Origin: Candidatus Latescibacterota bacterium
Lineage (GTDB): Bacteria > Latescibacterota > UBA2968 > UBA8231
Length of the DNA: 64,000 nucleotides
Reading direction: 5' to 3'
Assembly (NCBI GenBank): GCA_965206595.1
Contig: OZ242214.1
Span: 320,001-384,000, forward strand
Part shown: piece by piece, positions 52,481 to 56,747 of the stretch
How the letters are laid out: every line of letters starts with the position of its first letter
Position numbering within the stretch: the stretch's first letter is position 1
The notes under the pieces: model-generated
Told to the model about the DNA's origin: nothing
Seen by the model: the letters and a program-made list of their open reading frames with translations, nothing else
Database searches by the model: none
Program-made: the position numbers and the translations under genes

Positions 52481-53407
52481 TCAGCCAGCGCCGAGCCAGC
52501 GGCGCAGCCGGTCGAAAAACGGCTCCGGCCGGTTGGAGACGAAGCAGAGGCTCTCGCCGTCCGGGGACCAGGCCGGCTCCCGGTCCGTGACAAACTCCGC
52601 GGTCAATCGCCTGACCCCGGTTCCGTCGACGGCCATGCGGTAGACATGGAAGTTCCAGTCCCGGTTGGAAACGAAGGCGATCGCCCTGCCGTCGCCGGAA
52701 ATGGCCGGTTCCTGATCCTGTCCGGGGTGATTGCTGAGGTTGACCACCTCCCCGCCGGCTGCCTCTGCGATGCAGATCTCGAGATTGCCGAAGCGGTCGC
52801 TCTCGAAGGCGATGCGGCCGTCCGGCAACCAGGCCGGGCGCGCGTCGTGCCCCTCGTGCCGGGTCAGGTTGCGCAGGTTGCCGCCGTCGCGGTCGGCGAC
52901 GTAAACCTCAAGATTGCCGTCGCGGAAGGTGGTGAAAGCGATGAGCCGCCCATCGGGCGACCAGGCCGGCTGGATGCCGTTCTCCACGACCCGCCGGATC
53001 GCCGCTTCCCCGCCCCCCAGCTTAAGGACGTAGATGTCGAACGATCCTTCCGCCGTTCTGCCTCCGAAGGCGATGGCCGTACCGTCAGGCGTCCAGGAGA
53101 GGCCGGCCACGCTGGCTATATGCGACGGTACCGGTATCCTCATCAGTTTTTCCCCGGCCGGGGAAACCACGTGGAACTCGCTCCGGCCTTCGGTGTGAGC
53201 GACGTACAGGACGCGCCGCCCGTCCGGGGCCCAGCGCGGGCTGGCGGTTCCCCATCCCCAGTTCTCCGCGGAGATGCGCACGATGGAGGATCCGTCCCGC
53301 GCCATGCGAAAGACGCTCCCCTCGAAGTCGTGGGCCGCAGCGGGTTGCTGCCAGAGGAGCGAACAGAGCGTCAGGATGACGGTCAGCCTGTCGGATGATC
53401 CAGACAT
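52481..53407 (-). CDS. Secreted TolB-like (PD40) beta-propeller protein
   Basis: Repeated PAWSPDG; signal peptide ending AAA-H. Confidence 0.85.
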   Translation of the reverse strand: MSGSSDRLTVILTLCSLLWQQPAAAHDFEGSVFRMARDGSSIVRISAENWGWGTASPRWAPDGRRVLYVAHTEGRSEFHVVSPAGEKLMRIPVPSHIASVAGLSWTPDGTAIAFGGRTAEGSFDIYVLKLGGGEAAIRRVVENGIQPAWSPDGRLIAFTTFRDGNLEVYVADRDGGNLRNLTRHEGHDARPAWLPDGRIAFESDRFGNLEICIAEAAGGEVVNLSNHPGQDQEPAISGDGRAIAFVSNRDWNFHVYRMAVDGTGVRRLTAEFVTDREPAWSPDGESLCFVSNRPEPFFDRLRRWLGAG

Positions 53408-53508
53408 GACTCGGGTCCAAGGGGAAGGGTGAAAAAGAAGCGGATCAGGGGTGAGCCGACGGACCGTCAAGGCTCACCAGGAGAGACGAGATGGGATAGG
53501 ATGGAACG

Positions 53509-54486
53509 CTACTCGATTTCCAGGGAGGCCTTGATCCGGCCCCAGGAGACAGCATCGACGGCGCTGTCTTCGATCTGCCCGACTGGGTCGTTGGACAGCA
53601 AAAGCCCGTCGAGAAAGGTATCCGCCCGATGGGACAGTACGTTCCAGAACGTGGAGTTGTGCTCGCCCGACTGCTGGAAATCGGGCCCCCAATTTTTCCA
53701 CACTGAATCGGGACCGGGCGGGTCATGGTCATTCACTAGAATCGTGAAACCGATAACCCCGCCCGCGGAAAACCGGCTGACTGCGCTCCCGGCAGGGCCG
53801 TCCCAGGATTCTTCCCCCCAGCGGTCGAACGGCGTCACGTACAGCTCGATCACCCAGATGACCGGGGCTTCTCCGGCAACGCCGCCCCCGCTTTCCGCAT
53901 AGGGTGGAAGGGTCGTCCATGAAAGCATTCCAGTCTGGACTCTATACATCACATCACTCAAGGTCGGACCGCTGGCGGTGTGTGAAATAGCCGCGTAAAA
54001 CTGAGTCTGCCCGTGACCCGCGATCCATTCCTCCCTTGGGTCGTCGTTGGAATAACCCGCACCTCCGCTGTGATCTCCGTCGATCGCCAGCGTGATGCTG
54101 TCATTCGAGAGTACGTCTCGTCGAGTTATGATAGAACTGCCGTAGTCGTGGGTGTTCTTGTACACGTCGTCGCTGGCCACAAAGGCGACGTAGAGGCGGG
54201 CGGGCTCGTCGTGCCAGGCCAGCCAGATGCGGAAGTCCAGGTCGGAAGGATCAAGCGGGGAGTTCTGAAATTCTTCCGTGAAATCCAGCAGGGTCAGGGT
54301 CGGCTCGCCGAGCAGGTCGATCCACTCCTGTATCTGGCCGTCGTCGAGCCGGATCTCGGCCAGCATCTCGTCGCTGAGATAGGGAATCGGGTAAAGGCGG
54401 TCGCCGACGTGGGCCTCGGCCTGGATGCCCAGCCAGAGAAGCAGGCCCAGGGTGGAGGAAAACAGCTTTTTAATCTGCACGGGCAT
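53509..54486 (-). CDS. Secreted CBM9-like SWGxIK-tailed protein, copy A
   Basis: AAGGAG RBS; signal AEA-H; IDGDHSGG; ends SAVDAVSWGRIKASLEIE. Confidence 0.85.
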   Translation of the reverse strand: MPVQIKKLFSSTLGLLLWLGIQAEAHVGDRLYPIPYLSDEMLAEIRLDDGQIQEWIDLLGEPTLTLLDFTEEFQNSPLDPSDLDFRIWLAWHDEPARLYVAFVASDDVYKNTHDYGSSIITRRDVLSNDSITLAIDGDHSGGAGYSNDDPREEWIAGHGQTQFYAAISHTASGPTLSDVMYRVQTGMLSWTTLPPYAESGGGVAGEAPVIWVIELYVTPFDRWGEESWDGPAGSAVSRFSAGGVIGFTILVNDHDPPGPDSVWKNWGPDFQQSGEHNSTFWNVLSHRADTFLDGLLLSNDPVGQIEDSAVDAVSWGRIKASLEIE

Positions 54487-54671
54487 GGCTCTCCTTTCCT
54501 GCTCAAGACCGACTCGCCGGACCGGCCCTCAGGCTTTCCCGGTCGGGGTCGGGAGGTGTAGTTTCGCGCATTTACCGCAAAGATAAAAGGGCGGACAAGC
54601 GCCCCGCTGCACCTGGAAGAAGGGTCGCGGGACACTCGTCCGCCTGGGGCAGACCTGGGTAGGAGAGGGGG

Positions 54672-54878
54672 TCAGTTACACAGGCAGTAGCTGTAAGTCT
54701 CGGACCAGGAGTAGTTTCCGTGCCCCAGTTGGGAGCACTTGTAGGCGCATGCTCCATCGGAGTAAACCCCGCCGAAATAGTGGTATGAACTTGCGCCGAG
54801 AAACAACGCCCCGGCAGAGAGCATGACCCCCGCCACAATGGCGAGATGGATCTTGTACCGTCTCAGAAAGTGTAGCAT
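54672..54878 (-). CDS. Small secreted Cys-rich defensin-like peptide (68 aa)
   Basis: AAGAGGT RBS; basic + hydrophobic leader; CAYKC...CLC-N-stop. Confidence 0.7.
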   Translation of the reverse strand: MLHFLRRYKIHLAIVAGVMLSAGALFLGASSYHYFGGVYSDGACAYKCSQLGHGNYSWSETYSYCLCN

Positions 54879-55232
54879 TTTCTACCTCTTTTCGTTGTGA
54901 GGTGAGGTTTTCCCGGCATTGACCTGTTCCGAAGAAGCGGCTCCTTCCAGTCGTCGGGTCGGAAATCCGGCGCGCAACCTCGTCGCTCCCTCCTGTTGCC
55001 GCCGGCTATCGGTGCACTGCCTCCGCCTTCTCTATTGCTACTGCTGCTGCCCTCCAACACCAAGTCTGCAAGGAGTCCATCGGACACCAGCCCGATGGCT
55101 GCCTTGACGGGCAAGGTAAAAAAAAAGCTCGGGATCAAACCCCTTTTCATTGCCAAGGTCATTTACCCTTTCTGCCGCGAAATGGGGAACCGGTCCCCGG
55201 TCGGCTCGCGGTCGATGCCCTTGCGGTACGGA

Positions 55233-55438
55233 TTCGATCTTCCGGATCGTGTCGAAGAGTTGATGACGTCCTCTTCAAACCAGATCCGCTCCGCGGCCTC
55301 GATCCGCTGCGTCTCCTCGAGTACGAGGAGATGGTCGACAGCCTCACCCTCGAAGAGGTGCGAGAAGCCGCGGAGAAGTACTTCGACCTGGAGAACTACG
55401 TGCGGGTCGTGCTGCTGCCGGCGCCGGCTGACGGGTAG
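55233..55438 (+). pseudogene. Internally deleted remnant of an M16 protease 3' end
   Basis: 55291-55420 closely matches ~59457-59586 (GLDPLRLLEYEEMVDSLTLEEVREAAEKYFDLENYVRVVLLP); 55233-55286 resembles 59281-59328. Confidence 0.85.
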
Positions 55439-55446
55439 TCTGCCAG

Positions 55447-56421
55447 TCAGTCAGCCCTGGGCTGTTTCAGGGAGGCCTTGATCCGGCCCCAGGAGATCGA
55501 CTCGACCGCGCTGCCATCCGTTTCGGAGGGCAGCAGCAATCCGTCGAGAAAGGTATCCGCCCGCATGAATCGTATGTTCTGGAACGTGGTGTAGATCCCG
55601 TCCGATTGCTGCACTTCGGGCGCCCAATTTGTCCACTCTGAATCGTAAGGCGGCAAGTCATAATCAAACACTACCATCGTGAAACCGATCACCTTCCCCG
55701 CGGCAAAACGGCTGACTGCGCTCCCGGCGGGGTCCGCCCAGGTTTCCCCCCAGCGGTCGAACGGCGTAACGTACAGCTCGATCACCCAGATGACCGGCGT
55801 TTCTCCGGCCACGCCGCCGCCGCTTTCCGCATAGGGCGGCAGGGTCGTCCATGAAAGCTGGCCCGTCTGGATTCTATACACCTCATCACTCAAGGTCGGA
55901 CCGCTGACGGTACTGGAGATCGCCACATACGCTGGATTCTGCCCATGAATCTCGATCACTTCCTCCAATGGGTCGCCGTTGGAAACCCCCGCACCTCCGC
56001 TGTGATCTCCGTCGATCGCCAGGATGATGCTGTCATTCATGTGTACGTATCGTCGATTAACCTCAGAACTGTCGTAGTCGTGGGTGTTCTTGTACACGTC
56101 GTCGCTGGCCACGAAGGCGACGTAGAGACGGGCCGGCTCGTCGTGCCAGGCCAGCCAGATGCGGAAGTCTAGGTCGGAAGGATCAAGCGGGGAGTCCGCA
56201 ATTTCTTCCGTGAAATCCAGCAGGGTCAGGGTCGGCTCGCCGAGCAGGTCGTACCACTCCTGTATCTGGCCGTCGCCGAGCTGGATCTCGGCCAGCATCT
56301 CGTCGCTGAGATAGGGAATCGGGTACACCCGGTCGCCGACGTGGGCCTCGGCCGGGATGCCCAGCCAGAGGAGCAGGCCGAGGGCGGCGATCCATCGCTT
56401 TTTTTTACGGGAACGAGTCAT
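55447..56421 (-). CDS. Secreted CBM9-like SWGxIK-tailed protein, copy B
   Basis: Close paralog of 53509..54486; ends SAVESISWGRIKASLKQPRAD. Confidence 0.85.
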   Translation of the reverse strand: MTRSRKKKRWIAALGLLLWLGIPAEAHVGDRVYPIPYLSDEMLAEIQLGDGQIQEWYDLLGEPTLTLLDFTEEIADSPLDPSDLDFRIWLAWHDEPARLYVAFVASDDVYKNTHDYDSSEVNRRYVHMNDSIILAIDGDHSGGAGVSNGDPLEEVIEIHGQNPAYVAISSTVSGPTLSDEVYRIQTGQLSWTTLPPYAESGGGVAGETPVIWVIELYVTPFDRWGETWADPAGSAVSRFAAGKVIGFTMVVFDYDLPPYDSEWTNWAPEVQQSDGIYTTFQNIRFMRADTFLDGLLLPSETDGSAVESISWGRIKASLKQPRAD

Positions 56422-56747
56422 GGCTTTCTTCTCTCCCTCAAAGCATTGATGTCCGATTTGCCGCTGCCGGAGTGTGGGTCCGCAAGGCTGCGGCACTCGG
56501 CAGGCATCCTACCAAATCCCCAGGCCCAGGGGGGTCGCCGTGAAGGCGGGACGGGGCCGGGATTCGGCTGGCGCATCGTCACCTCTGACACTGCCGTCGT
56601 ACCCTGCTTGCCGCGGAGCAAACGAATGGCCAGATGGCTGGCTTGGGGAATAACGGGAAAAGGGGTGACTATCCAAAAGCTGTTTCTTTTTTACTCGGCC
56701 CTGGCAACGGGGAGAGCAGGCCGCGCCCAACAAATAAGGAGTGGTGA

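Follow-up and report, generated by a model that had tools for sequence, protein, structure and literature searches.

A genus-restricted family of exported mini-proteins with four invariant cysteines, encoded ahead of CBM9-like genes in a Latescibacterota bacterium

The window analysed here, a stretch of 64,000 nucleotides of a Candidatus Latescibacterota bacterium (positions 320001-384000 of the single 7.05-Mb contig OZ242214.1; 7,053,161 bp, 63.7% GC), encodes on its minus strand, at positions 54672-54878, a protein of 68 amino acids belonging to a family which is most safely described as genus-restricted, fast-evolving, exported and stapled by four cysteines. The open reading frame (ORF) is a real gene, far beyond chance, and its product has a predicted fold with two of the Cys in a helix and two in the last strand. 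Its relatives share the Cys pattern and, nearly always, a position ahead of genes for secreted CBM9-like proteins, which resemble sugar-binding modules; a long hairpin behind the stop codon is present in most paralogs, and the mature parts evolve faster than the leaders. The role that we tentatively favour is that of a variable exported binding module acting together with the CBM9-like proteins. An earlier sequence-only reading had taken the product for a small secreted defensin-like peptide; a function as a classic membrane-active antimicrobial defensin is not supported by the analysis.

The gene itself was described correctly in that reading. The ORF extends from ATG to TGA, and the good ribosome-binding site claimed for it is found as AAGAGG, 6 nt ahead of the start codon. 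A basic segment (MLHFLRRYK) forms the N-terminus, and a hydrophobic run of about 20 residues (I10 to A29) comes next; A29 is invariant in all 14 sequences of the family alignment, where it coincides with the VDA, VGA and LSA sites of the paralogs (small-x-Ala), in agreement with the signal-like leader that had been proposed. As judged from these features, the leader is probably cleaved off rather than retained as a membrane anchor. The mature part of the window copy (residues 30-68) contains exactly four Cys (C44, C48, C65 and C67), only two His and no fifth Cys, and ends with TYSYCLC and thus without a GXC motif. It had been characterized as aromatic-rich and not strongly cationic, which fits the nine aromatic residues out of 39 (seven Tyr, one Phe, one Trp) and the net charge of -1. 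The gene is also located, as noted before, in a patch of lower GC content (0.545-0.57 across positions 54700-54999 versus 0.637 genome-wide) between two duplicated genes, both with leader-like N-termini.

A family hidden Markov model retrieved 17 six-frame segments at E <= 0.0061 from the same genome. Among 15 genomic segments that were examined, 13 show an ATG, a GGAG-type ribosome site and a hydrophobic leader, the others including broken copies; the ribosome sites precede all 13 intact paralogs. All 14 aligned sequences keep the four Cys, and at least 90% of them keep Y46 and H53. Ten family matches were obtained from a sister species of the same genus (genome G002) and one weak match from a second genome of the genus (G001), and none from 165 further genomes of the phylum included in the search. 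When 1.84 billion representative proteins were screened with a profile, 35 metagenome cluster representatives were retrieved at E <= 0.001, which comprise 24 proteins with the full core, nine truncated or frameshifted relatives and two unrelated proteins (a repeat protein and a eukaryotic Ig-like protein). A word-indexed search of 5.8 billion proteins returned only the peptide itself and one relative of 71% identity (P0002), the closest one outside the genome, which carries five Cys and a Gln replacing H53, and a locus search with a six-row alignment returned one related locus, in the sister species. The search for homologs retaining the four Cys, proposed together with the sequence-only reading, therefore came out in favour of a genuine family, the four Cys being kept in paralogs, orthologs and metagenome relatives alike. 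No Pfam family was assigned to the peptide at E <= 1 and none from NCBIfam, the PDB sequence profile search gave nothing relevant, the ESM Atlas gave no usable match with residues 30-68, and a full-text literature search pairing Latescibacter with defensin returned only papers unrelated by title. For positions 53400-56600, six DNA data sets from three studies are on record, and none of RNA. As a side observation, the unrelated repeat protein (P0018, 525 amino acids) contains about eight tandem units, each with CKWKCSxxFHQSGNTC, and matched the helix-region profile in six stretches (E 2.2e-9); its signature C-x-aromatic-x-C-S-x-x-x-H resembles that of the mini-protein, but the architecture differs.

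The composition of the family was surveyed in 41 distinct relatives passing a regular expression for the core, from which P0002 dropped out by its Gln at the position of His53. The net charge is zero or negative in 37 of them (mean -3.1). Four Cys are present in five members, five in 25, six in one, seven in nine and eight in one, and the placement of the extra Cys varies, creating CCxC or CxCC or falling into a loop or an N-terminal His-rich segment. Most paralogs have HH, HxH or AHS segments behind the leader. A GxC motif is found in 26 of the 41 relatives by a crude regular expression, and a single one, P0007 from a metagenome, shows the classical six-Cys spacing C..CxxxC..C..CxC together with GKC.

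AlphaFold2, run with a 14-row alignment, predicts a strand at residues 33-36, a helix at 41-51 and two further strands at 56-59 and 64-67, with block-mean predicted local distance difference test (pLDDT) values of 85-88 for residues 31-68 (88 and 86 for residues 41-60), and no helix for residues 1-32. Since CxxxC is placed in the predicted helix and CxC in the last predicted strand, the arrangement corresponds to the cysteine-stabilised helix (CSH) motif of cysteine-stabilised alpha-beta (CS-alpha-beta) peptides, and the predicted topology of a helix followed by an antiparallel two-stranded sheet, plus the N-terminal strand, agrees with that of the CS-alpha-beta fold. In this model, the most likely disulfides of the mini-protein would be C44-C65 and C48-C67; a third disulfide or a six-Cys framework is not present in the window peptide with its four Cys. 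Compared with the PDB by Foldseek, the model had 283 matches at E <= 10, of which not one reached E <= 0.001; the tomato defensin TPP3 ranked first (E 0.6, TM score 0.53 on the target). Further plant defensins as well as mytilin, drosomycin and scorpion toxins also occur among the weak matches, and PAN/apple-type modules tie with the defensins, at lower root-mean-square deviations (0.9-1.5 over 36-43 columns). None of 19 family members matches a Pfam defensin model at E <= 10. The CxxxC helix and CxC strand of CS-alpha-beta defensins, which the sequence-only reading had recognized, are thus retained as motif and topology of an AlphaFold2 prediction, but they do not establish the protein as a member of the defensin superfamily, because no sequence model matches and the Foldseek scores are weak. 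The structure prediction and Foldseek comparison suggested with that reading likewise returned the helix-to-strand arrangement of the Cys, together with defensin matches that are weak and tied with PAN/apple modules.

The mature part differs from the remainder of the locus in its rate of change. Relative to the closest paralog, the window copy shows nucleotide identities of 87.8% upstream of the gene, 88.5% in the leader, 78.6% in the mature part and 86.3% downstream. Ratios of nonsynonymous to synonymous substitution rates (dN/dS, NG86), determined on 35-52 codons per pair and without a significance test, range from 0.40 to 1.40 for the mature parts of eight close pairs, with values of at least 0.84 in six of them, and from 0.18 to 0.48 for the leaders of seven pairs, the leader of the remaining pair showing 1.03 with very few changes. 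By this measure the leader is under purifying selection, and the combination of a fixed scaffold with high values in the mature part suggests relaxed or diversifying selection on the mature surface.

The gene order is equally characteristic. A CBM9-like gene on the same strand is found 0-1486 bp downstream of 18 of the 19 family segments, although genes of this kind occupy no more than 1.05% of the genome. The seven best copies of the sister genome exhibit the same order of peptide and CBM9-like genes, and a match to the secreted PD40 protein of the window occurs within 6 kb of 14 of the 17 peptide loci, mostly as close paralogs that lie behind or among the CBM9-like genes. The position of the PD40 gene differs by cassette, being after the CBM9-like gene in the window and between the peptide and CBM9-like genes in a triplicated cassette elsewhere in the genome. 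As the mini-protein gene is nearly always placed ahead of CBM9-like genes, its product probably works with their products. No immunity, ABC-export or processing genes were seen in the cassette. The 194-nt intergenic stretch behind the peptide gene folds into an RNA of -85.9 kcal/mol (z -3.28), with 0 of 200 shuffled sequences as stable, and a terminator scan matches at 54605-54588 and 54607-54591. A long hairpin is present at the same place in 12 of 13 paralogs, as read from the dot-bracket structures, and at least five of these carry a clean T run. Five paralogs, with peptide starts at 6984383, 6978096, 6970119, 522678 and 6475728, exhibit a sigma-54 -24/-12 element ([A/C]GGCAC-N5-TTGC[A/T/G], 9-10 of 11 consensus positions) 75-123 nt upstream, one of them with two tandem copies. 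With up to two mismatches, the sigma-54 pattern occurs eight times in the window versus 17.7 expected, and not at all between the peptide gene and the upstream gene; sigma-70-like sites were found once in 3.4 kb, which is chance level. Separately from the peptide gene, a weaker sigma-54 candidate, TGGCCATTCGTTTGCT, is located at 56617-56632 on the minus strand, upstream of the upstream CBM9-like gene. The features of the locus are collected in Table 1.

Table 1. Features of the mini-protein locus in the window (positions counted from the first nucleotide of the window).
Feature	Position	Strand	Remarks
Gene for exported Cys mini-protein, 68 amino acids	54672..54878	minus	ATG start, TGA stop at 54672-54674; frame and four Cys kept in paralogs and orthologs
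Shine-Dalgarno sequence AAGAGG	54885..54890	minus	6 nt upstream of ATG; read from the sequence
Residues 1-29, basic n-region and hydrophobic leader ending with LGA; predicted Sec signal peptide	54792..54878	minus	
Residues 30-68, predicted strand-helix-strand-strand core, C44xxxC48 in the helix, C65xC67 in the last strand	54675..54791	minus	
Hairpin with 18-bp stem and CUUUUAUCUUU; intrinsic-terminator-like or attenuator	54579..54644	minus	about 30 nt past the stop codon
Downstream gene for secreted CBM9/DOMON-like protein, 325 amino acids, ending with SWGRIKASLEIE	53509..54486	minus	
Upstream CBM9-like paralog with signal-like leader	55447..56421	minus	75-76% identical to the downstream one
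PD40 (TolB-like) beta-propeller gene closing the cassette	52481..53470	minus	Pfam PD40 E 3.9e-43; start codon uncertain

These observations may be combined into the following model. The gene would encode a Sec-exported mini-protein of about 39 residues, in which a CxxxC helix is packed on a C-terminal CxC strand in the CSH arrangement and in which the scaffold (the four Cys, Y46 and G52-H53) is kept while the surface changes quickly. It would be the promoter-proximal gene of a repeated cassette, followed by the hairpin, one to five CBM9/DOMON-like genes and usually a gene for a PD40 propeller. The hairpin may act as an attenuator, such that the small transcript outnumbers the downstream ones, and the product, located in the envelope or outside the cell, may serve as a variable module rich in aromatic and acidic residues, whose partner could be either the CBM9-like proteins themselves or their glycan or protein target; both the attenuation and the partner or ligand are what we infer from the arrangement. 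A direct contact was modelled by a two-chain prediction with residues 26-325 of the CBM9-like neighbour (77-row alignment) and residues 30-68 of the peptide (19 rows), which gave an ipSAE of 0.37 (0.00, 0.37 and 0.47 in three runs) versus 0.01 for the best of three controls and was rated as weak support. In the calibration, 58 of 80 solved complexes and two of 110 mismatched pairs attained the pass mark, and ipSAE values of up to 0.60 belong to only seven of those 80 solved complexes and to both passing mismatches; as the prediction used custom alignments, these counts hold roughly. The runs agree in at least 0% of the contacts, with a pLDDT of the partner of at least 61.

What speaks for a binding module associated with the CBM9-like proteins is the fixed order of the genes, a hairpin that would permit production in excess, a surface rich in aromatic and acidic residues, and the complex prediction with its weak signal. 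This is the reading we would put forward, somewhat short of an even chance of being correct. Several observations weigh against it. The own genome contains about 77 CBM9-like segments and about 17 peptide genes; moreover, the mini-protein was not found in two genomes of other genera with 34 (G012) and 16 (G019) CBM9-like matches, and G001, with 55 of them, contributes only the weak match mentioned above. Since the CBM9-like family thus occurs without it, the mini-protein is no obligatory subunit. An odd number of Cys, as present in 34 of the 41 relatives, is at odds with cysteines serving in disulfides alone. The 92.9%-complete genome gave no match to DsbB (PF02600), VKOR (PF07884) or Thioredoxin_4 (PF13462), and the only DSBA-family match (genome positions 389087-389584) has no leader, so that disulfide formation in the mini-protein is itself inferred. 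A clear sigma-54 element is absent from the window copy, for which a scored scan gave 7 of 11 positions at -150, shared with the closest paralog. Finally, the complex prediction is only weak, with one of its three runs at zero, and the dN/dS values are derived from the short codon sets indicated above.

No family annotation was found for the flanking proteins of about 325 amino acids, to which the analysis assigned a CBM9 fold and which belong to a very large family with 747 relatives at E <= 1e-10. In the own genome, 77 six-frame segments of this family cover 74,184 of 7,053,161 bp (1.05%). At least 54 scored matches are present in each of three genomes of the genus; apart from the two other genera represented by G012 and G019, a few occur in most other genomes of the taxonomic family, and none in 16 genomes of other families of the class. 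In all 78 sequences compared, the predicted mature part begins with a His (AEA|H, AGA|H); likewise invariant are H92 and H139 as well as a number of Asp, Trp and Tyr residues. The invariant predicted N-terminal His suggests a metal site using the free amino terminus; an LPMO-like (lytic polysaccharide monooxygenase-like) fold match was not seen for the CBM9-like protein. A census of the residue after predicted cleavage, which gave His in 12 of 150 crude signal-like N-termini, was rejected as unreliable, as it recovered only seven CBM9-like proteins.

Some further observations concern the arrangement of these genes. A cassette of about 4 kb, consisting of a divergent peptide, PD40 and CBM9-like genes, is repeated three times in tandem at genome positions 2743000-2754500, with a PD40 gene at 1175-2059 of this region; its units are separated by an ORF of 320 amino acids with an N-terminal Cys-rich zinc-finger-like segment, which presumably resembles a transposase. 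In G012, an ORF of 45 amino acids (C2, about 4204322-4204666, minus strand) is located about 435 nt upstream of a CBM9-like array; it ends with GCSSGYCKYSKYDEEYDECVCS (CxxxxC..CxC) and is rich in Tyr and acidic residues, but may have arisen by chance, because no hydrophobic leader follows its only Met. Nothing analogous was seen as a first-gene peptide in G019. In addition, an identical open frame of 36 codons (containing SGAGAFSKTGSRACMMSCAQGRH) was encountered at 15 genomic loci on both strands (e.g. 975892-976002, 1442653-1442763 and 7021057-7021167) and probably belongs to a repeat or mobile element.

Other explanations of the mini-protein have to be weighed against the binding module. A stand-alone secreted defensin-like antimicrobial, bacteriocin or effector aimed at a host or competitor, with the variable multi-copy mature region reflecting an arms race, would account for the CSH motif and the predicted strand-helix-strand-strand order, for the presence of plant defensins, mytilin, drosomycin and scorpion toxins among the structural matches, and for a transcription unit of its own bounded by the hairpin. 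It would also account for the conserved leader with a hypervariable mature part at dN/dS around 1, a combination seen in many toxin and antimicrobial peptide families. The full six-Cys pattern with GKC in P0007 points in the same direction, as does the fact that bacterial cis-defensins are known (PMC11561630). However, the peptide has a negative net charge here and a zero or negative one in nearly all relatives, whereas classical defensins are described as cationic; the Pfam defensin models match none of the 19 members, and the window copy lacks a third disulfide and GXC. The cassette provides no immunity, ABC-export or processing gene, a Sec leader reaches only the periplasm of a presumably diderm cell, and the four-Cys precedent from a myxobacterium, AdDLP, is itself reported to show no antibacterial or antifungal activity (PMC5116183). 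A stand-alone defensin is possible, with scaffold and variability as its specific support, yet we regard it as unlikely. The antimicrobial or host-interacting role assumed in the sequence-only reading is accordingly not upheld for an acidic family with mostly unpaired Cys, no Pfam defensin match and a place in CBM9-like cassettes; the data agree better with the reservation made there, namely binding to a target instead of membrane lysis, than with the defensin headline.

A role in metal binding or thiol redox chemistry, in which partly reduced Cys together with His would bind Cu, Zn or another metal and the peptide might be a chaperone or redox partner of the CBM9/DOMON-like proteins, still deserves consideration, given that the Cys counts are mostly odd, that a His is conserved, that Dsb genes are missing and that the neighbours carry an invariant His. 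To these points may be added the CCxC or CxCC variants of many paralogs, the nearly invariant H53 with the HH, HxH or AHS segments behind the leader, the lack of VKOR and Thioredoxin_4 matches, and weak Foldseek matches to metallochaperones of the Atx1/HAH1/CopZ/MerP type (E 1.3-3, probability 0.1-0.33). These matches are at chance level, though, and the four core Cys are predicted in the middle of the helix and of the strand, as in a disulfide-bonded CSH motif, and not in loop knuckles. The window copy offers just two His and no fifth Cys, P0002 has lost H53 to Gln, and the position of the extra Cys shifts between paralogs. Furthermore, the genome encodes a haem-copper oxidase, which implies exposure of the organism to oxygen, and the oxidation of exported thiols does not require Dsb proteins. 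On balance, such a role seems rather improbable to us. Still less probable is an uncleaved leader, which would leave the product in the inner membrane as a small bitopic protein whose Cys domain faces the periplasm, serving for instance as anchor, assembly factor or signalling partner: the hydrophobic stretch of about 20 residues is long and the leader is under purifying selection, but the hydrophobic run ends with small-x-Ala in 14 of 14 sequences and is preceded by Gly-rich breaks, and AlphaFold2 shows no helix up to residue 32. Cleaved signal peptides typically show such a small-x-Ala site after a hydrophobic stretch. That the ORF is no gene but arose by chance in GC-rich DNA, as might be suspected from the short length and the lack of database annotation, is practically discarded, since it is refuted by the conservation of the invariant Cys, the ribosome sites, the purifying selection on the leader and the confident fold prediction.

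A more far-reaching, and in our estimate improbable, variant is that of a new extracellular system, in which mini-proteins on a CSH scaffold, mostly with one free thiol, would be metal or redox partners or specificity subunits of the CBM9/DOMON-fold proteins; the first mature His of the latter could then be part of a histidine-brace-type copper site acting on polysaccharides. If true, a defensin scaffold would have taken on a role outside defence, as an accessory to enzymes, in a fourth phylum of bacteria, and the fold would either have been invented independently or form an ancient side branch. The family is distinct in being acidic, aromatic-rich, multi-copy and fast-evolving, in its odd Cys numbers, and in being tied to CBM9-like and propeller genes rather than to immunity or export genes, and it would provide a handle on the function of the large unannotated family of secreted CBM9-like proteins. 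Should the predicted fold and disulfides be correct, the CSH scaffold would serve a non-killing purpose in bacteria; should the Cys bind metal instead, the resemblance to defensins would be convergent and the family a new type of exported metal-binding mini-proteins.

A comparison with known systems shows partial similarities in several directions. Copper chaperones of the Atx1/CopZ type carry MxCxxC at the loop-helix junction of a ferredoxin-like fold, and Cox17 combines CCxC with twin Cx9C motifs; neither type of motif is found in the window peptide, and CCxC occurs in some paralogs only. Hevein/CBM18 domains and fungal CBM1 are modules of about 35-45 residues with two to four disulfides, whose surface Tyr and Trp residues stack on glycans and which are not cationic killers. 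The share of aromatic residues and the CBM9-like neighbours make them a functional analogy, while folds and Cys patterns differ, and they were not among the structural matches of the mini-protein. The PAN, apple and WSC domains among the matches (HGF N domain 7mob/3hms, TgMIC4 apple 4a5v, SML-2 2yil, Kremen WSC 5fws) are eukaryotic domains of 70-90 residues, of which about 40 are aligned, and their partner Cys sit on different strands and not in a CxC. The matching plant defensins (TPP3 4uj0, NsD7 5kk4, 1ti5) are cationic eukaryotic proteins with four disulfides, and the scores are too weak to indicate homology.

The closest resemblance is to bacterial peptides. PMC11561630 describes 74 bacterial cis-defensins from Proteobacteria, Acidobacteria and Actinobacteria, all with a three-disulfide framework and a GXC motif, and discusses such bacterial peptides as possible ancestors of the eukaryotic defensins. 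The cis-defensins of classes I-V (e.g. xanthusin-1) share with the window peptide a signal peptide and a CS-alpha-beta-type core with CxxxC and CxC, class V having a third strand as in plant defensins. The window peptide differs from them by two potential disulfides, the lack of GXC, its net charge of -1 and its origin from another phylum, and the family would thereby add a fourth, uncultured phylum to the three with CSH-type bacterial peptides covered in that survey. The two-disulfide versions from myxobacteria, to which the sequence-only reading had referred, do exist: AdDLP-type peptides are known from Anaeromyxobacter dehalogenans and Stigmatella aurantiaca (Zhu 2007; Gao et al. 2009, both as cited from PMC5116183), and AdDLP of A. 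dehalogenans is reported there to contain the four-Cys CSH motif only, without a GXC core, and to show anti-Plasmodium activity only. Common to both groups are the small size, the bacterial origin, the export and the restriction to the four CSH Cys without a GXC gamma-core, as judged from the published description of AdDLP. In contrast to these myxobacterial peptides, the mini-proteins from Latescibacterota are multi-copy and acidic, mostly carry a fifth Cys in the paralogs and have an extra predicted N-terminal strand, and their genes are fixed at the head of CBM9-like/PD40 cassettes.

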